A DNA stretch of 64,000 nucleotides from an uncultured Chloroflexia bacterium (GTDB lineage: Bacteria; Chloroflexota; Limnocylindria; Limnocylindrales; CSP1-4), in the NCBI GenBank assembly GCA_963835845.1, contig CAWIGT010000006.1:8709-72708 (forward strand), written 5' to 3'. Position numbers and translations under genes: made by a program. The notes under the pieces were generated by a model that was not told the DNA's origin, did not search any database, and worked only from the letters and a program-made list of their open reading frames with translations. Numbering within the stretch: the stretch's first letter is position 1; each line of letters starts with the position of its first letter. Below, one piece after another: positions 5,110 through 46,311 of the stretch.

Positions 5110-6686
5110 GGTCTCCTCGTTCGGCGACGCCGCTGGATACTTCGCGGCGAGGCACTTCCACGATGATACGCGTGCCGAGCGCCAGGCCCGCTCTGGACCT
5201 CCAGTCGGCTCCCGACAGACGAAGCTCGGGCGCGCATGTTGCCCAGGCCCTGGTGGCCCGATGCCGCGCGGTTTGTGCGGGTCGAAGCCCACTCCGTTGT
5301 CGCTGATGATGAGCTTGATCCCGCCATCGTCGGTCTCGACGTGGACGCTGCCGCGAGTGGCCCTGGAGTGGCGGGCGACGTTGCTGAGCGCCTCGCGTGC
5401 GATTGCAGCAGCTGGCCGATCAGCTCGGGCGAGCAGGTCGGAGTCCCGGGCGTTGGACGCGTCGAGATCGACGTCGATCATGCTGTTGACTCGGAACTCG
5501 TCGGCGAGGGCGGCGAGCGCCGCCGACGAGGCCGGCCTGCTCGAGCAGCTCGGGCCGGAGCCCGAAGATGAAGTTGCGGATGTCGCGGATCGACAGGTTG
5601 AGCGAGTCGATGGCGCGCTCGACTCGGGCGCGAGCCTCCGTCGGGCTCTTCCGCCATCAGCTCCGGCACGTCCTCGAGCGACAGGCCGACGGCGTAGATG
5701 CTCTGGATGATGCCGTCGTGCAGGTCGCGGCCGATCCGCTCGCGCTCCTCGACGATGGCCAGCCGCTGGACCTGCTCGTGCAGCCGGGCGTTCTCGATGG
5801 CGATGCCCGGCATGCAGCGCGAACATCTCGACCAGTCGCTCGTCGTCCTCGGTGAAGTCGCCAGAGGGCAGCTTGTTGGTCAGGTAGAGTCGGCCGATCG
5901 ACCGGCCCTTCGCGCCGATCGGCACGCCCAGCAGCGAGTGCATCGGCCGGGTGGTTCGGCGGGAAGCCGAAGCGTCGCGGGTCCGTCGCGATGTCATGGT
6001 ACTCGGAGAGGTCGAGCTTCTCGGGCGATGACGCCCAGCAGACCGTGGCCGTGCGGCATGGGCCCGATCCGCTCGCGCTCCGCGCGGCTGATTCCGCTCG
6101 TGATGAACCGCTCGATGCCGAAGTCCTGATCGACGATACCCAGCGCCGCGTACTGCGCGTGGGCAAGCTCGCGGACGCGATCGGTGATCAGCTGGAGGAC
6201 GCGGTCCAGGTCCAGAACGCCGGCGATGCCACGCGTGGCGGTGTCCATCGCCGCGAGCTCGTCGGTGGCCTGTCCGGCACGGGCGCGGGACCAGGCGGAG
6301 CCGATCACGATCTCCAGACCGCGGGCACATTCGTCGACCGAGAAGACGGCCGCGGGCGGGGCATCCAGCTGCAGCGTGGCGAGGACTCGATCGCCGAAAC
6401 GCAACTCGTACGTTCGGAGGCCGGCCGTCTCGGCCCCGGGATCGAGCAGGCGGCCGCTGCGCAATTCCACCTCGTCGAGGGGTGCTGCGTAGAGGTGGAG
6501 GTGGCCGCCGCCCAATCCGGAACTGGATACGACCCTCTCGAACGCCTCGTTCAGCAGCTGGTGGGTGTCGGGCCCCGGCCCGCCGCGCCAGGCTTCGAGC
6601 GCCGCCGACATCTCCCTCAACCCGAGCAGGCCGGTAGTGTCGGGGCCCTCCCGGCTGCTGTTCGGCGTTGAATGAGTTGCGCTCAT
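5110..6686 (-). pseudogene. GAF-domain sensor histidine kinase (DevS/DosT-like, HisKA_3 type) with multiple frame switches
   Basis: The GAF part (DLDRVLQLITDRVRELAHAQYAALGIVDQDFGIERFITSGISRAERERIGPMPHGHGLLGVI) is in one frame. The rest follows in other frames: PEKLDLSEYHDIATDPRRFGFPPNHP, PMHSLLGVPIGAKGRSIGRLYLTNKLPSGDFTEDDERLVEMFALHAG, IAIENARLHEQVQRLAIVEERERIGRDLHDGIIQSIYAVGLSLEDVPELMAEEP, LAALADEFRVNSMIDV...IAREALSNVARHS...IISDNGVGFDP and HQGLGNMRARASSVGSRLEVQSGPG. Confidence 0.8.
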
Positions 6687-6968
6687 CTTTCGGAGACTAG
6701 CAGGCTGCCCGTCCGAGCGTTGGGGCCCACCCGGTCGTTGCGACGCGCTACGGCCCACGGCCTCGCCCGAATCCCCAAATCAGCGAGGGGCGCGGGGCCG
6801 GCTGGTGTCGGGGCGCCGCCGCCCGTTCGGCAGCTCGGGTTCGACTCAGGACGCCGTTGGGCCCGCCGGAACGGGCCGGAGGTCCCTTGGCCCTCCACCC
6901 GGCCGCGCCCACCCTTGCCCAACACGAAGACCGGCAGCATTCCAGCCTATCGGCCGGATGGACGGGTT

Positions 6969-39142: not shown

Positions 39143-40412
39143 TCAGTGCTTCAGGTTCACGAGTTCCTGGAGCATCTCGTCGGAGGTGGTGATGACGCGG
39201 CTGTTGGCCTGGAAGCCACGTTCGGCCGTGATCATCCCCGTGAACTGCGTCGCCAGGTCCACGTTCGACATCTCGAGCGCGCCCGTCGTCACCGTTCCGC
39301 GTCCGCCCGTCCCTGCGGCGCCGATGTTGGCGCCGCCGGACGCGGAGGTAGCAGAGAAGTTGTTCTGGCCGGCCCGAAGGAGACCGGCAGAGTTGAGGAA
39401 ATTCGCGAGTGCGATCTGGCCCAGAACCTGCGTCTGGCCGTTGCTGTATACGCCGGAGAGGAGGCCCGCGTCGCCGACCGCGAAGGTGACCAGCGTACCG
39501 GAGGTGAAGCCGTCGGTCTGGCCGGCGGGCTGGCTGGTGCCGCTGAACTGGGTCATCTGGGTCAGATCGATCTTTGGCGTCGTCGACGTAGCGCCGTCCG
39601 GGAAGGTGAAGGCCAGGGTGCCCGTGGAGGCCGAGAAGACGCCGCCGCTTGTGTAGGTGAGCGTGCCGTTGTTGACTCCGGCCGCGGACCCGTCGATGGC
39701 GATGCCGCTGTCGCCCGCATCCTTGGTGGCAGCCCAGGACCACGTGTTTGCGGCCGTCTTGGTGAAGGTCACCTTGACCGAGTGGGAGACGCCCAGGCTG
39801 TCGAATACGGTCATGGTCGTGGGCACGGTGGTCGCGGGCACGGCGGGAGGGCCGACAACGGCGGCGGTCGCGCCGGCGTCGAGGTTGCCGCTGAGGGTCA
39901 CGTTCGAAGTCGCCAGAGCGGTGGTGCGCTGACCGATCGGGATGGTCAGGTTGGTGATCGGCTGGGTGATGTCGATCTTGCCGGCCGAGTCTGCCTGCCA
40001 GCCCTGGACTTTGAGGCCGCTGGCCGGGTTAGCCAGCGATCCGTCGATGGCGATGTCGAACGCGCCATCGCGCGTATAGGTCGTGGCGGATCCGTCGGAC
40101 TCGATGAAGAAGCCGTCGCCCTGAATGGCCATGTCGGTCGTCTTGCCGGTCGATTGAAGGTTGCCCTGGGTCTGAAGGACGTCGATGCCGGCGACCGTCA
40201 TGCCGAGGCCGATCTGGGCGGGGTTGATGCTGCCGAGCCCGCCCTGAGGTGCGGTCGCACCGTGGACGGTCTGGGAAAGGATGTCCTGGAAGTTGACGCG
40301 GCCGGCCTTGAACCCAACCGTGTTGACGTTGGCGATGTTGTTGCCGATAACGTCAAGCATGGTCTGGTGGCCGCTGCAGACCGGAGATCGCTGAGAACAT
40401 AGAGCGGAGCAT
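39143..40412 (-). CDS. flgE: Flagellar hook protein FlgE, with an apparent 1-nt insertion at codon 13-14 (about 40369-40373)
   Basis: GGGAGG lies 7 nt upstream of the ATG at 40412. MLRSMFSAISGLQ then shifts frame to (H)QTMLDVIGNNIANVNTVGFKAGRVNFQD...MSNVDLATQFTGMITAERGFQANSRVITTSDEMLQELVNLKH. The span is 1270 nt (3n+1). Confidence 0.9.
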
Positions 40413-40600: not shown

Positions 40601-41051
40601 TTACGCGATTACCACACCATCGATTCTGCGTAAAGACGCGCTCCTTGTTCTGGTCCGGCTCGACGGCCGTTACGACCGTGTGACTGGGTGCGTGGACGAC
40701 GTAGGCGTACTGGTCGAGCATCACCAGGGACTGGCCCGTGCTGCCACGCTGGCTGAGGGTGTCCATGGCCTTGCTCAGGCGATCCATCTGGTCTGGCGCC
40801 ATCGGGATCTGACGCTGCTCGACGCGCTTGAGGGCATGCTCCGAGAACTGGAGCGAATGCTCGTCGGCGGCTGCCGACAGCGCATCTCGGAAGGACAGGC
40901 TACCGTCCGACGGCGGCGCTCCCGAGGTGGGCTGGCCGAGCGGGCTCGAGCCGGGCGTCAGGCTTGGGTCCCGGACGAGACCTGCCTGGACTGCCGGGTC
41001 GGGTCCTATTCGATCGATCGTAGCGATCACCTCCTTGGTGCTGTACGGCAC
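40601..41051 (-). CDS. Flagellar operon protein of the TIGR02530 type (found between flgD and flgE), with an apparent 1-nt frameshift near 40630
   Basis: LQFSEHALKRVEQRQIPMAPDQMDRLSKAMDTLSQRGSTGQSLVMLDQYAYVVHAPSHTVVTAVEPDQNKERVFT. The expected ending RIDGVVIA-stop is in the next frame, with TAA at 40601-40603. As given, the frame instead runs on into the flgE start. Confidence 0.7.
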
Positions 41052-41063
41052 TCGGCCGTGTTG

Positions 41064-41561
41064 CTAGGCGGCCGGGTTCGTCACCGACGTGACGCTGTCC
41101 GGCTTGACGTACTGGCTTCCGACCTGGAGAACCAGGCCGGCGTCGTTCGACTGAGTCACCGATGTGACGACTCCGTTGACGGCAGTTCCGTTGACGTCGA
41201 TGCCGACGACGTTCTTGCCGATCAGGGCTGAACTCTGGGCGAGCTGCGATCCCTGGAGGGACGTCTGGACGCCCTGGAGAGTCGAGATCTCCGTCATCTG
41301 AGACAGTTCGCCGAGCATTGCCGAGTCGTCGACCGGCTGGGTGGGGTCTTGATTCTGGAGCTGAGCCAGGAAGAGCTTCATGAAGTCGTCGCTGGTCAGC
41401 CCCATGGCGCTCGTGCTGGTCGAGTTCAACGTGTCAGTGGTTCCGTTGCTCGTACCCGCGGCGCTGGCCGCGCTCGCCCCGGAGGAGGCGGCGGGGCTGG
41501 CGGAGGCGCCGCCGGTCCCGAATGTGGAGAACGCCGAGAAACTGGTCGGGTTGATTGCCAT
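41064..41561 (-). CDS. flgD: Flagellar hook capping/assembly protein FlgD
   Basis: MAINPTSFSAF..., DDFMKLFLAQLQNQDPTQPVDDSAMLGELSQMTEISTLQGVQ, GKNVVGIDVNGTAVNGVVTSV. Confidence 0.88.
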   Translation of the reverse strand: MAINPTSFSAFSTFGTGGASASPAASSGASAASAAGTSNGTTDTLNSTSTSAMGLTSDDFMKLFLAQLQNQDPTQPVDDSAMLGELSQMTEISTLQGVQTSLQGSQLAQSSALIGKNVVGIDVNGTAVNGVVTSVTQSNDAGLVLQVGSQYVKPDSVTSVTNPAA

Positions 41562-41574
41562 CGCAGTACTCCTG

Positions 41575-43440
41575 TCAGGCCCGAATATCGAGAGTGGTGC
41601 CGCCGGGCAGCGGCGAACGCGACGCGGGTCGAGTTGGTCTGATGGATTCCGTACGCGCCACGAGCGAGGTTTCTGGTGTCGAATGGGAGCTGTAGCCGGG
41701 GCCGGTTCCACCGCCCGAGCCGTTGCCGGATGCGCCGCCGTTGACTGCGCCCTGACCGTGGCCGCCGTCTCCCGGCTGGCCGCTGCCTGATCCGTATCCG
41801 CCGCCCGTCGACCAGCCGGCCGCCTCGAAGGCGTTGCCACCTGAACGACTCGTCGCCGATCCGCCCGACTCGCTTCGGACCGTGAGGCTCACCCCGGCGA
41901 GGCCGTCGCCGGCTGCATGCATCCGAACGGCGGCGGCATTGATTGCGTCGGCCGCGACGCGGTCTCGCACGACGAGCTGCGCCTGGACGATCTCGCCGGC
42001 GCGGCCCGTGACAATCACGCGGACGTCGCCGAGGGTCGGATCGTTGATACGCGCTTCGAGTCCCGTCCCGGACGCGGTCTGGATCGTGTGGATGGTCTGG
42101 GCGACCTGGTTCATGAGTTTGTCCGCGGCGGCCGCCACATCGACCGACGAACTGCTGCCGGCGACGGTGTCGACGAGGCCGGTCCGCGAGGCGGCGCCGG
42201 CAACCGCGCCGGCAGCCGCGGCGGCAAGAGTGGCCGACGAAGCGGAGGCGCTATCGATCGGGGACGGTCCCGCGGCCGAGGCCGCCGTGGGACTTGCCGC
42301 GGTCGCGTTATCGGACTTGCCGGACGCGCTCGATCCATCCGAATTGCCGGCCGAGGCCCCACTCGATCGGGTCGCGGAAACGGCCTGGGTCTGCGAGCGA
42401 CCGGAGGCCGGTCCGACCGCATCGGCGGCGTACGCCGCGGTTCCGAAGGAGGAGCCGCCAGGACGTATGACGCGCGGCAGTGCTCGGCCCGGATCGGCGG
42501 CTGCAGCACCGGCGGCCAGTCCGGCCGCAGTGGCGTCGGCGATTTGCGCGGGGGCCGAGGCCGGGTTGGCCGGAGTGGTGGCGGCCGGCGTTGTGGCCGG
42601 CGTTGTGGCCGGAGTGGTGGCGGGAGTGGTGGCCGGAGTGGTGGCCGGAGTGGTGGCGGCCGGAGTGGTGGCGGCCGGTGTCGTGGCCGGAGTGGCTGCG
42701 CGGGTTGAGGCCGGCGCGGAGTCCGCGGTCTGCGCGGCGGCTGCCGGCACGGCGGGCGTGGCCGAGGTCGTGGGCGCGGCCGCGGGCGTCGCCGCCGGAG
42801 TGGCGGCTGCGGCCGCAGTACCGGAGATCGATACGCGGGTCGGAGCCTGGCCGGTTGCGCTGCCGGACTGCGTCGAAGTCCATCCGGTGGCGACGCTGGA
42901 GGCGTTGGCCGACGGGTCTGCGACGGTCGCCGCAGGCGAGGAGGCCGATGCGACGACCCCGCCCTGAAGACTCGTCGCGGTGGACGCCGCGCCGGTGTTC
43001 TGCGTGACCGGTTGAGCCATCGCGGAGGACCGCGTGGACTGGAGCGACCCGGCAAGCGGCGCCTGCCCTGCCTGACCGGCGGCTTGCGCCGCGGTCGGCA
43101 TCTGCGACGGAGGTCGAGCACCGGAGGACCCCGTGGTCCCGGACGCGCCATCGACCGACCCGATTGTCGTTGCCGGGCCCTGCTCCCCGCCGCTCTGATT
43201 GGCTGGAGTCGCGGCGCCGGCCGAAGTGGCCTGGCCAGTTGCAGCAGATGGCTTCGCGGAATCCGCCGCGGCCGGCCCGACACCGGGGATGGGTGGAACG
43301 TCCGACGACACAGGCGAGCCCGCGAACGCTGCCGTAGAAACCGCTTTAGCGGGTGCCGCCGCCGCACCGGCGGACGGCCTATCGACCGCGGCGGCGGGCG
43401 GCAACTGGGAGTCGGCACTCGAGCCCGAAGCGGCGGTCAC
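41575..43440 (-). CDS. fliK: Flagellar hook-length control protein FliK (C-terminal Flg_hook domain). The reading frame is open a further 384 nt upstream with no start codon.
   Basis: An Ala/Thr/Pro/Ser-rich ruler-like region precedes LEARINDPTLGDVRVIVTGRAGEIVQAQLVVRDRVAADAINAAAVRMHAAGDGLAGVSLTVRSE. The annotated start is only a GTG. Confidence 0.85.
   Translation of the reverse strand: MTAASGSSADSQLPPAAAVDRPSAGAAAAPAKAVSTAAFAGSPVSSDVPPIPGVGPAAADSAKPSAATGQATSAGAATPANQSGGEQGPATTIGSVDGASGTTGSSGARPPSQMPTAAQAAGQAGQAPLAGSLQSTRSSAMAQPVTQNTGAASTATSLQGGVVASASSPAATVADPSANASSVATGWTSTQSGSATGQAPTRVSISGTAAAAATPAATPAAAPTTSATPAVPAAAAQTADSAPASTRAATPATTPAATTPAATTPATTPATTPATTPATTPATTPAATTPANPASAPAQIADATAAGLAAGAAAADPGRALPRVIRPGGSSFGTAAYAADAVGPASGRSQTQAVSATRSSGASAGNSDGSSASGKSDNATAASPTAASAAGPSPIDSASASSATLAAAAAGAVAGAASRTGLVDTVAGSSSSVDVAAAADKLMNQVAQTIHTIQTASGTGLEARINDPTLGDVRVIVTGRAGEIVQAQLVVRDRVAADAINAAAVRMHAAGDGLAGVSLTVRSESGGSATSRSGGNAFEAAGWSTGGGYGSGSGQPGDGGHGQGAVNGGASGNGSGGGTGPGYSSHSTPETSLVARTESIRPTRPASRSPLPGGTTLDIRA
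42571..42695. repeat. Intragenic 12/15-bp tandem repeats encoding (T)TPA units in FliK
   Basis: ggagtggtggcc/ggagtggtggcggcc units translate as ATTPATTPATTPATTPATTPATTPAATTPA. Confidence 0.9.
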
Positions 43441-44723
43441 GGTCGTGGCCGCGCGCGGGTTCGCCTGAACGTATGCTCCGTAGGCAGCGGCGGATGCTGC
43501 GGCCGCGGCCGCCGGGGCCGACGAAGGGGCGGACGAAGGGGCCGCCGGGGCGGACGAAGGGGCCGCCGGGGCGGACGAAGGGGCCGCCGGGGCGGACGAA
43601 GGGGCCGCCGGGGCGGACGAAGGGGCCGCCGGGGGGGGTCCGCGGCAGCGACCGTGGCCGGCCAGACCGGCCGGGCAATCGCGCCGTCGCCGGCCTGATC
43701 TGTCGCTTTGAGGGCCGCGGCCTGGGCGGCGCCAACCGGAGAAGCCTGCGTGCCGGGCGCGACCGACGACGCGTCGGGCTGGCCTCGGACCTGCCCTGAG
43801 ACTGCGCCGGCGCCGCCGTCGAGGCTACCGGCAGTCCCGGACGCGGGCGCGACGGCCCCGGCCGTAGACGGCGCGGCCGAAGCGCGGTCCGACGGCTCTC
43901 CGGAGGAGGCCGGGTAAGTGGCAGCGGCTGCGGCTGCACCGGCAACGGCCTGCGTCGCAGGCGAAGTGAAGGCGAAATCGGGCCCGATCGATGCGGAGCC
44001 CCGGGCCGTCGTCGCCGCGCCATCGAGAGCCGGCCACGCCGCGGCCGCTGTGGCCGATGGACTCGCTGCGGCGGCGTTGTCGGTGGACACGGCCGAGGTG
44101 GCAATCGATGGGGCGACCTGTGCGCGAGCGGCGGTACCTATAGCACCAACCGATGCCACGGCGGCAGAGCCGCCCGTGACGCCGGCCGCGGAGCCGGCCG
44201 AACCGTCGGCTTGCCCTGCCTGGCCGGCGGGGACGGAGGTTAGGGCGACCTTCGGGGAATCGTCGGCGATCGGGGCTGAGGCTGCGCTGTGGGCTGGCGC
44301 GCCGGCCGACGTGGCAGAGTCGACCCTGGACTTGCCTCTGATGGAGGTCTTCGAGCCGTCGCGGCCGGTCGACCTGGACCGGGCGGAAGTCGCGCCGGTC
44401 GCTTCAGCGGCCTTGACAGTGGCGAATGACTCCGGGACGGCGGCCGTGCCTGGGTGGGCCAGCGGCCGCCATATCGGCGCCTCGGCCGAGGATCGGATCG
44501 CGACCGCGGGCCGTGCCGGCCCGGCGTGGAAGGGATCCCGATTGGAACCGATCCGATCGCTAGACGGGGTGGAGTTCGTGTCGACCGAGTCGAGCCGCCT
44601 GGTCTGGGCCTCGACGAAGGCGTCGCTGAAGCTGATCTCGTCGGGTCCGGCCGGAACGTTGATGTCGCCCGGGATCGGCGCCACGCCGGGACCCATGGAG
44701 ACGTTGGAAGACAAACCGGCCAT
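43437..44723 (-). CDS. Low-complexity Ala/Ser/Gly-rich protein (ORF428), most likely the N-terminal two-fifths of a single ~1049-aa FliK-like protein
   Basis: MAGLSSNVSMGPGVAPIPGDINVPAGPDEISFSDAFVEAQTRRL.... The composition matches FliK until the C8 tract. After it the frame turns into Arg/Pro junk (PPRRPLR x5), while the fliK frame reads PAAPSSA x5. Confidence 0.6.
   Translation of the reverse strand: MAGLSSNVSMGPGVAPIPGDINVPAGPDEISFSDAFVEAQTRRLDSVDTNSTPSSDRIGSNRDPFHAGPARPAVAIRSSAEAPIWRPLAHPGTAAVPESFATVKAAEATGATSARSRSTGRDGSKTSIRGKSRVDSATSAGAPAHSAASAPIADDSPKVALTSVPAGQAGQADGSAGSAAGVTGGSAAVASVGAIGTAARAQVAPSIATSAVSTDNAAAASPSATAAAAWPALDGAATTARGSASIGPDFAFTSPATQAVAGAAAAAATYPASSGEPSDRASAAPSTAGAVAPASGTAGSLDGGAGAVSGQVRGQPDASSVAPGTQASPVGAAQAAALKATDQAGDGAIARPVWPATVAAADPPRRPLRPPRRPLRPPRRPLRPPRRPLRPPRRPLRPPLRRPRRPRPQHPPLPTEHTFRRTRARPRP
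43513..43632. repeat. Intragenic 21-bp tandem repeat, five full copies plus a partial
   Basis: The unit ggcggacgaaggggccgccgg starts at 43528, 43549, 43570, 43591 and 43612. It encodes PAAPSSA in the fliK frame and PPRRPLR in the ORF428 frame. Confidence 0.95.
43631..43638. repeat. G8 homopolymer (C8 on the coding strand) at the frame junction of the FliK-like gene
   Basis: ccggggggggtcc. This is the longest homopolymer I noticed in the window. Confidence 0.95.
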
Positions 44724-44725
44724 TG

Positions 44726-45175
44726 CTAATGCCCTCCGAGGACGTCGTAGAGCTGCGAGAACTTCGAGGTAATGAGGTGCGAGTCCGCTTCGTAGCTGAT
44801 CTGGGTTTCCGTCAGGGCGGTCATCTCGGTCTCGAGGTCGACCTTGTTGCCGTCGTTGCGGATGTTTTCGCTCGTGGCCGCCACGTTTGCCCCGGAGCCG
44901 TCCCCGGCGTTCCCGAGCGAGGAGAAGTGGCGCGGATCCGTGGTCTTCATGCCTACGTCCGCGGACGGCCCCGACGAGGGCGCGAGAAGACTGTCCGACG
45001 ATCCGCCCATCGAGGCGAGCTCGTTCTGGAGAGCCGTCTCGAAGTCGACCGACTGCGGCTGGTAGTTGGGCGTGTCGATGTTGGCCAGATTGGACGAGAT
45101 CACGGACTGCCTGGTCGTCAGGCCATCGAGGGCCTGAGTCAGGATCGTCATCGTGCTGTCGGACAAGCCGCTCAT
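44726..45175 (-). CDS. flgB: Flagellar basal-body rod protein FlgB
   Basis: MSGLSDSTMTILTQALDGLTTRQSVISSNLANIDTPNYQPQSVDFETAL...NKVDLETEMTALTETQISYEADSHLITSKFSQLYDVL. An ATGA overlap couples it to the upstream gene. Confidence 0.88.
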   Translation of the reverse strand: MSGLSDSTMTILTQALDGLTTRQSVISSNLANIDTPNYQPQSVDFETALQNELASMGGSSDSLLAPSSGPSADVGMKTTDPRHFSSLGNAGDGSGANVAATSENIRNDGNKVDLETEMTALTETQISYEADSHLITSKFSQLYDVLGGH

Positions 45176-46311
45176 GAGGATGGCTCCACGTAGCTCTGCC
45201 ACTTATGAAGGATCGTGTTTACGTAGCCCTGTTTGCTATCGGGGACTACACCGAGACGGCTGATCGCGCCCGGTCCGGCGTTGTAGGCGGCGAGAGCGAG
45301 GTCGACCCGTCCGAACGATTTGAGCTGAGTGGCGACGTACTTGGCGCCGCCATTCAGGTTCTGCTGGGGATCGAAGGAGTTGGTGACGCCTAGCTCGGCC
45401 GCCGTGGCCGGCATCAGCTGGGTCAGCCCCTGCGCGCCGCAGCTGGACACGGCATTGGGGTTGAAGCTCGACTCGGCGTAGACGAGCGAAGCCAGCAGCA
45501 GCGGGTCCATGCCGTTTGCTACGGCCGCGGAGCGGATCTGGCCGGCGTATGGAATCCGGGACGCGACTGCGTCGAAGCGGGTCAGGACGGCCGCTCCGGA
45601 AGTCGGGACGAGCGTCGCCGGGTCGCTGGGTGACGGAGCGAGCAGCGTCGACGGGTCGGGCAGGCGGCCGGCCGCGAGATACTGCGCCGGATCGACCGCG
45701 GTCCCGCCGCTCGTGTACAACCCGAAATGGAGGTGCGGGCCCGTGGTGACGCCGGTGACCCCCACCTGGCCGATCGTCTGGCCGGCGGTAACGCGCTGGC
45801 CGACGGCAACGGGGAGCGAAGGGTCGAGGTGGGCGTACAGCGACGTGTAGCCGTCGTCGTGGCGGATCTTCACGACCACCGCACCGTCCGATTGGGTGCC
45901 GGCATAGGTGATCGTCCCGTCGGCGGCCGCGTGAACCGCGGTACCGAGCGGGGCCGCCATGTCGATACCGTTGTGGTAGTGGGCGTAGGTCACGCCGTTG
46001 ACGGTGGCCGGCGGCTCCAGGGTTTCGTTGGTCGGCCCGAAGTTCTGCGTCACTTGAGAACTCGGCAGCGGCGAGAGGAACGCCACTCCGGCGGACGCGG
46101 CCGACGCCGAGGCGCCCATGACGCTGATCTTCGCGGACGGGTTCGCGGCGCCGGCGACGCTCTCCAGGACATTGGCGAAGGGAGAGCCGTCGACGAGGCC
46201 CGAGCCGGCCGTGGCGGCCAGCGAGTAACCGCTGGTGGCCCAGTTCGGATCGACACTGCGCATCAGGTCGTCCAGCTGCGAGACGCGGGCCAGGCAGTCG
46301 GTGTAGCTCAT
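45172..46311 (-). CDS. Peptidoglycan hydrolase with fused M23 peptidase and lytic transglycosylase (SLT) domains and no signal peptide (candidate FlgJ functional analogue)
   Basis: M23 domain: HNGIDMAAPLGTAVHAAADGTITYAG...DGYTSLYAHL...GQTIGQVGVTGVTTGPHLHFGLY. SLT domain: MDPLLLASLVYAESSFNPNAVSSCGAQGLTQLMPATA...YNAGPGAI. Confidence 0.85.
   Translation of the reverse strand: MSYTDCLARVSQLDDLMRSVDPNWATSGYSLAATAGSGLVDGSPFANVLESVAGAANPSAKISVMGASASAASAGVAFLSPLPSSQVTQNFGPTNETLEPPATVNGVTYAHYHNGIDMAAPLGTAVHAAADGTITYAGTQSDGAVVVKIRHDDGYTSLYAHLDPSLPVAVGQRVTAGQTIGQVGVTGVTTGPHLHFGLYTSGGTAVDPAQYLAAGRLPDPSTLLAPSPSDPATLVPTSGAAVLTRFDAVASRIPYAGQIRSAAVANGMDPLLLASLVYAESSFNPNAVSSCGAQGLTQLMPATAAELGVTNSFDPQQNLNGGAKYVATQLKSFGRVDLALAAYNAGPGAISRLGVVPDSKQGYVNTILHKWQSYVEPSS

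Follow-up and report, generated by a model that had tools for sequence, protein, structure and literature searches.

The hook gene cluster of an uncultured Chloroflexia bacterium contains a gene resembling fliK, the gene for the flagellar hook-length ruler, that is read in two frames. The stretch analyzed here is 64,000 nucleotides (nt) of contig CAWIGT010000006.1 (positions 8,709 to 72,708) and is referred to as the window. In it, the fliK-like gene at 41575-44723 on the minus strand is divided between two open reading frames (ORFs), and the frame change between ORF428 and ORF621 falls at a run of eight cytosines (C8). A preliminary description had proposed a phase-variable switch, a programmed -1 frameshift, or a 1-nt assembly deletion at this site. 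The features at the center of the question are the following.

44723-43437, minus strand: ORF428, as given in the ORF list.
43440-41575, minus strand: ORF621, as given in the ORF list.
43631-43638, minus strand: single C8 run (G8 on the plus strand), the point of frame change.
43526-43634, minus strand: perfect 21-nt tandem repeat of 5.2 copies, encoding PAAPSSA x5 and beginning within the C run (Tandem Repeats Finder, 100% matches).
42567-42714, minus strand: 12/24-nt tandem repeat in the spacer, encoding (A)TTPA about 10 times (Tandem Repeats Finder; translation).

The 41575-44723 span measures 3149 nt (3n+2). Composition in the ORF428 frame shifts from A26/S13/G11% before the tract to R38/P37% past it, and that of the alternative frame shifts from R35/G18% to A44/P23/S20%. 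Upstream of the GTG at 43440, 128 codons (384 nt) of the fliK frame are free of stops and include no ATG, GTG, or TTG, and the addition of one C at the tract reconstructs an ORF of 1049 amino acids (aa) that includes PAAPSSA x5. Each sequence-level statement of the preliminary description (among them the ORF428 coordinates, the C8 position, the span, the composition flip, the open frame, and the ~1049-aa product) was reproduced. Tract lengths of C3, C6, and C9 keep the gene in frame, and C8 is out of frame. A GGAGG motif lies upstream of the ATG at 44723; no Shine-Dalgarno sequence precedes the GTG at 43440. GC3 frame plots did not locate the frameshift, as the third-position signal is indistinct in the low-complexity spacer. 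No other homopolymer in the window reaches 7 nt, although first-order Markov simulations predict 16.6 G/C runs of that length or more; the C8 run is not a chance feature of this DNA. The window is 68% GC and strongly avoids homopolymers, with five G/C 6-mers and one T 6-mer as its next-longest runs.

A search of species-representative genomes with the neighboring M23-SLT protein identified eight syntenic loci in metagenome-assembled genomes (MAGs) of Chloroflexota and "Candidatus Limnocylindrales" (46-73% identity in that protein). In seven of these (L001-L007; M23-SLT identity, 53-73%), a single uninterrupted ORF of 852-1136 aa (2.6-3.4 kb) lies between the rod-protein gene and flgD, for example at 11604-15014 in L001 and 5865-8423 in L003, and each begins with an ATG or GTG preceded by GGAGG. 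The N-terminus of these proteins, M[AGS]GL..NV.LG...SF[SG]DAF.EA[QR], is that of ORF428, and their C-terminus, ...GGSSLDIRA, is that of ORF621. The middle region is unalignable and variable in length, yet always in frame. Because the relatives hold both conserved termini within a single ORF, ORF428 and ORF621 are taken to be one gene, in line with the preliminary description; all seven relatives have one gene each, and none shows a two-gene arrangement with a bona fide fliK start. A homopolymer of at least 7 nt is present in the fliK-like gene of 0/7 relatives. The repeats in the center of the protein are lineage specific (PAAPSSA x5 and TTPA x10 in the window; ATPATPTTAG-type in L006).

Public gene calls for this family (P0001-P0022) measure 146-212 aa, even on contigs of up to 850 kb. 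In most cases the called start is close to the M of ..DKLM.., a little ahead of the predicted switch domain, and none of the proteins has a Pfam domain assigned. The 2-3 kb of low-complexity sequence upstream is evidently lost in gene calling, and the short calls from internal starts therefore leave the family systematically truncated in databases.

Independent k-mer assemblies of the same organism were available as Logan contigs, located through exact matches to the rod protein, FlgD, FliG, FliF, and a CoA-transferase. Contigs from runs ERR11594399 and SRR28042189 are 99.8-100% identical to the window and jointly cover 16.4 kb of it. Contig L031 (ERR11594399, 4135 nt) aligns with window positions 47743-43604 without a mismatch, and the one gap in the alignment, of 5 nt, is located at the tract: L031 reads GCGGACCCGGCGG where the window reads GCGGACCCCCCCCGGCGG, i.e., C3 versus C8. 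The C3 version translates in frame (...AAADPAAPSSAPA), and this frame continues uninterrupted (...ATVAAADPAAPSSAPA). L031 ends 27 nt beyond the tract, within the 21-nt tandem repeat. L034 starts within the same repeat, in the fliK frame and upstream of the GTG at 43440, and its called product of 659 aa is longer than ORF621. In our interpretation, the repeat exceeds the k-mer length, so that the de Bruijn graph breaks there and both L031 and L034 terminate. A word-index search with the whole 1049-aa reconstruction gave no match, probably since low-complexity matches filled the candidate list. No record was returned when six window ORFs (ORF428, ORF621, and four others) were looked up by exact match, and an exact-pattern scan of Joint Genome Institute metagenome contigs for the tract flanks with 1-12 nt between them returned no match.

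The tract is not the only position at which the window carries surplus bases. L033 and L034 together cover window positions 43555-37785 (5.8 kb), and over this interval the window has three further 1-nt insertions relative to them.

40620-40632, minus strand: extra base in the Flagellar_put gene (window, ACGCAGAATCGA; the two runs, ACGC-GAATCGA and ACGCA-AATCGA).
40368-40380 (~40373), minus strand: extra base in the flgE N-terminus (window, CTGCAGCGGCC; both runs, CTGCAG-GGCC).
~39047: extra intergenic base, from the comparison with the Logan contigs.

At the first of these sites (~40627), the two runs differ by G versus A, and the window contains both bases. The Flagellar_put ORF runs on to 232 aa in the window versus an intact 149 aa in both Logan assemblies, and the relatives agree with the latter (their proteins end in ...ERVFTQIDSVVIA followed by the stop codon). 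Likewise, FlgE is a 405-aa ORF in the window, with its N-terminal MLRSMFSAISGLQ in another frame, and the Logan FlgE is 422 aa long, includes Flg_bb_rod, and matches the relatives. The window differs from the Logan contigs by 4 single-nucleotide polymorphisms (SNPs) in the flagellar cluster (38.5-40.6 kb), which point to co-occurring strains there; the ratio of insertions/deletions (indels) to SNPs over 43555-37785 is approximately 1:1.

A second patch lies outside the flagellar genes. The GAF-HisKA_3-HATPase_c histidine-kinase gene at ~5120-6760 (minus strand), upstream of a LuxR-type response regulator, can be read only via about seven +1 frame changes. When stitched by hand, the kinase matches the Pfam domains GAF (1-133/133), HisKA_3 (1-67/68), and HATPase_c (8-110/111) over their full length, whereas the unstitched ORFs give Pfam fragments only. 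This region is a dense patch of insertion errors in a non-flagellar gene; the last of the exact look-ups listed above, with the response-regulator gene and meant for a check of the kinase against an independent contig, found no record. In two related loci on long-contig MAGs, L008 (11470-14405 and 15013-16827) and L039, the genes fliK, flgE, Flagellar_put, cheW, and cheA are likewise broken up among several frames, which suggests that indel-rich consensus sequences are common in assemblies of this clade.

Collectively, the split of fliK in the window is very probably an assembly consensus error and not a genetic switch, because the relatives have one gene, the C3 version in L031 is in frame, and other insertions in the window break conserved genes. 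C8 is not reproduced in L031, where C3 restores the conserved ORF, just as L033 and L034 restore Flagellar_put and flgE; indels of the same kind recur at ~40627, ~40373, and ~39047 and in the unrelated kinase gene (5.1-6.8 kb). The five surplus C's border the perfect 21-nt tandem repeat and fall in a region that appears to vary among co-occurring strains. The window would derive from a long-read or strain-collapsed consensus, and the extra C's may have arisen while that consensus was built across the variable repeat. The assembly deletion named in the preliminary description was thus the right kind of explanation; its size and direction were not, since the window has five C's too many relative to the C3 of L031 and not one C fewer than C9.

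Several points weigh against this explanation. L031 alone crosses the tract, as the SRR28042189-side contig L032 ends at 44196, and the tract length is judged from assembled contigs. A 5-nt homopolymer surplus is unlike the usual +/-1 error of long reads, and the origin of the extra C's at the variable repeat is a guess. The Logan contigs also have flaws of their own: L037 (ERR11594399) reads TTT in fliG at ~49164, in the C-terminal region, where the window, the SRR28042189 contig, and the relatives support TT and the window agrees with the relatives to the end of FliG. The k-mer contigs therefore carry indel errors or variants of their own. Most simply, the organism would have all these genes intact, with consensus errors peculiar to each assembly. 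Pseudogenization of the hook cluster was also considered and ranked low, because the differences are nearly all insertions, one of them is a two-allele merge, and a non-flagellar gene is equally damaged.

Of the alternatives, the one that survives best is that C8 is a real allele of the dominant strain, which we consider unlikely. It would be either a recent inactivating 5-nt insertion in fliK, with loss of hook-length control or motility, or a new hypermutable tract at which slipped-strand mispairing would turn the gene on (C6/C9) and off (C7/C8). The run is present in the sequence, it is the sole homopolymer of at least 7 nt in a genome that otherwise avoids them, and its possible lengths divide into those in frame (C3, C6, and C9) and out of frame (C8). 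The other assembly has C3, however, and a gap of 5 nt is beyond single-unit slippage on a C3 run. Homopolymer switches are known in flagellar genes, namely flgR and flgS of Campylobacter jejuni, flhA of Campylobacter coli, and fliP of Helicobacter pylori (PMC3930126). Here, in contrast, the tract occurs in 0/7 relatives, and the 64 kb contain no further candidate contingency tracts. The 4 SNPs relative to the Logan contigs argue for true strain differences in the 38-44-kb stretch. Even so, the insertions in the neighboring genes do not recur in either of two independent assemblies, one such insertion is the two-allele merge, the indel-to-SNP ratio is near 1:1, and approximately seven frameshifts in an unrelated kinase gene fit consensus error far better than biology. 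The phase-variable switch of the preliminary description is not supported by this evidence: the tract is missing from all seven relatives, the sole length difference is 5 nt, homopolymers are avoided, and other insertion artifacts are present.

More improbable is the specific case in which C8 is both real and hypermutable in a subpopulation, toggling a ruler of ~1050 aa between full-length (C6/C9) and truncated (C7/C8) forms. If true, it would represent a first example of hook-length control by phase variation, and this in a free-living, non-pathogenic organism (a soil/sediment Limnocylindrales-like lineage). Single-unit variation, as expected of a contingency locus, was not found, as C3 versus C8 is the only difference between L031 and the window and the flanks are 100% identical; neither is the tract kept up in the relatives (0/7), nor are such tracts enriched (one run of at least 7 nt versus 16.6 expected).

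It is very improbable that the two ORFs are distinct genes, one for a 428-aa protein and one for a FliK of 621 aa starting at the GTG at 43440. Both ORFs exist as listed, and public callers often report short C-terminal fragments (146-212 aa) for this family, but those database proteins are calls from internal starts at the M of ..DKLM.. and are no evidence of a separate gene. In addition, the GTG lacks a ribosome-binding site, the fliK frame extends a further 384 nt upstream of it with a composition typical of the family, and 7/7 relatives keep the N- and C-terminal modules in one ORF. Least probable of all is a real C8 decoded by programmed -1 ribosomal frameshifting or transcriptional slippage into a 428-aa basic-tailed protein and a 1049-aa ruler: GA-C CCC CCC-CGG in the ORF428 frame does fit an X XXY YYZ slippery heptamer, in the window version only, and the GC-rich downstream repeat folds stably (-48.5 kcal/mol; z = -2.06 versus shuffles), but that structure is a tandem repeat pairing with itself at a marginal z-score, the Arg/Pro tail has the composition of out-of-frame GC-rich DNA, as in junk frames elsewhere, and the programmed frameshift of the preliminary description is opposed by seven relatives without the tract, by an independent assembly with a single frame and no slippery run, by the lack of conservation of any two-frame arrangement, and by the insertion artifacts nearby.

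With the split explained most probably as a consensus error, the gene itself can be described by its parts.

43639-44723, minus strand: 5' part of fliK, with ~45 conserved N-terminal aa (MAGLSSNVS..PDEISFSDAF.EAQ; aligned with L001-L007) followed by the first portion of the spacer rich in Ala/Ser/Gly/Thr/Pro.
41575-43630, minus strand: 3' part of fliK, with the remainder of the spacer, then a predicted T3S4-like domain and a Gly/Ser tail, closed by the conserved ...LPGGTTLDIRA and the stop codon (frame-2 translation).
41869-42129, minus strand: predicted core of the substrate-specificity-switch domain (T3S4/Flg_hook-like) at the C-terminus, spanning residues 866-952 in the reconstructed 1049-aa protein (AlphaFold2 and Foldseek).

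The DNA of the 5' part is identical in Logan contigs L031 and L032, and the C-terminal 260 aa of the product share 45-59% identity with the relatives. Pfam gave no match in either half of the window product. Across the family, Flg_hook was found in the C-termini of 6/8 members, all below threshold (best E value, 0.0011), and weakly (E values of ~0.006-0.008) on some distant library relatives. An exhaustive profile search retrieved just 72 relatives, with the domain C-terminal in all of them, and a sequence-profile search of the PDB with the C-terminal domain returned chance matches only and no FliK. An AlphaFold2 model of this domain, for which the alignment (A3) was built from database proteins and not from the locus-derived relatives, comprises a helix, three strands, a helix, and a strand. 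Its top Foldseek match in the PDB is the substrate-specificity (SS) domain of PscP (5cuk; E value, 1.4e-3; probability, 1.0; template modeling score, 0.56, target normalized), and the FliK C-terminal domain 2rrl is also among the top matches (probability, 0.84).

Both the location and the layout of the gene are those of FliK/T3S4 rulers: it stands with the hook genes, immediately upstream of flgD-flgE, and a long, low-complexity, length-variable spacer (A26, S13, G11, P9, T7%) separates the C-terminal domain from a short N-terminal region. Three points weigh against the assignment, namely, that Pfam Flg_hook always scores below the gathering cutoff, that the domain model is of moderate confidence only (predicted local distance difference test score, 66), and that the Foldseek E values are modest. 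By context and predicted fold, the most fitting description of the gene is a divergent FliK-type ruler of giant size, which lends support to the FliK-like identity given in the preliminary description. It is very probably one gene of ~1047-1049 codons, with ORF428 and ORF621 as its halves, encoding a short conserved N-terminus, a spacer of ~800 residues that is rich in Ala/Ser/Thr/Pro/Gly, carries perfect tandem repeats, and is presumably disordered, a predicted C-terminal T3S4-like switch domain, and the conserved ...LDIRA end. By analogy with FliK, which leaves the cell via the flagellar export gate and switches FlhB specificity, the protein may measure hook length. The ruler is strikingly long and variable for a group not known for flagella.

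The genes adjoining fliK on either side are as follows.

44726-45175, minus strand: rod-protein gene, 149 aa, directly upstream of fliK (Pfam Flg_bb_rod; exact protein on L031 and L032).
41064-41561, minus strand: flgD, 165 aa, directly downstream of fliK (Pfam FlgD and FLgD_tudor; exact protein on L033 and L034).

The minus-strand gene order is fliJ, M23-SLT, rod gene, fliK-like gene, flgD, Flagellar_put, and flgE, and it is identical in L001-L007. Between fliJ and fliK, window positions 44726-46311 (minus strand) encode a fused M23 peptidase and SLT lytic transglycosylase (379 aa) followed by the 149-aa rod-type protein. The fusion is FlgJ-like by domain content, and this unusual order is kept in all related loci.

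A homopolymer placed exactly at a frame change resembles a contingency switch, yet this one is gone in an independent assembly and lies within a patch of insertion errors, which calls for caution. As a biological switch, the C8 feature is most likely not real, and what lies beneath it is an ordinary fliK, albeit one of great length and with poor annotation. Limnocylindrales-type Chloroflexota have a FliK-like ruler of unusual length (852-1136 aa), rich in repeats and variable in size, that is missed by Pfam and cut to 146-212 aa in public calls. Very long hooks would be expected of these bacteria if the ruler rule holds.

The findings can be set beside four known systems. Consensus indel artifacts of long-read or strain-collapsed metagenomes resemble the window in their clustered single-base insertions that break conserved ORFs, in a site that holds both alleles, in a tract at the edge of a perfect tandem repeat, and in the split genes of L008 and L039; the 5-nt surplus in the window exceeds their typical +/-1 error. 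The flagellar homopolymer switches of Campylobacterota likewise consist of a G/C homopolymer inside a flagellar gene whose length sets the frame. Those tracts vary by +/-1 within populations, and their hosts are host-adapted genomes with many such tracts, whereas the window tract is absent from relatives and from the independent assembly, in DNA that avoids homopolymers and has insertion artifacts around it.

The resemblances to Salmonella FliK (Pfam Flg_hook, PF02120; 2RRL) are the position of the window gene immediately ahead of flgD and flgE within a flagellar operon, its short conserved N-terminus, and its long low-complexity spacer, and the model of a compact C-terminal alpha/beta domain matches 2rrl; the weak Flg_hook matches in the window-type proteins are placed at the right position. 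At 405 aa, however, Salmonella FliK is considerably shorter, the window protein being ~2.5 times longer, and the window-type spacer differs in its perfect tandem repeats and hypervariable length among relatives (852-1136 aa). The window-type sequence is further set apart from the FliK family by a divergence too great for the Pfam threshold and by its extra Gly/Ser tail and conserved ...LDIRA C-terminus. The YscP/PscP needle-length rulers (T3S4/SS domain, 5CUK) provide the best structural match of the C-terminal domain model and the same ruler-plus-switch architecture, but the context in the window is flagellar (flgD, flgE, fliF/G/H/I/J, and rod genes), with no injectisome.

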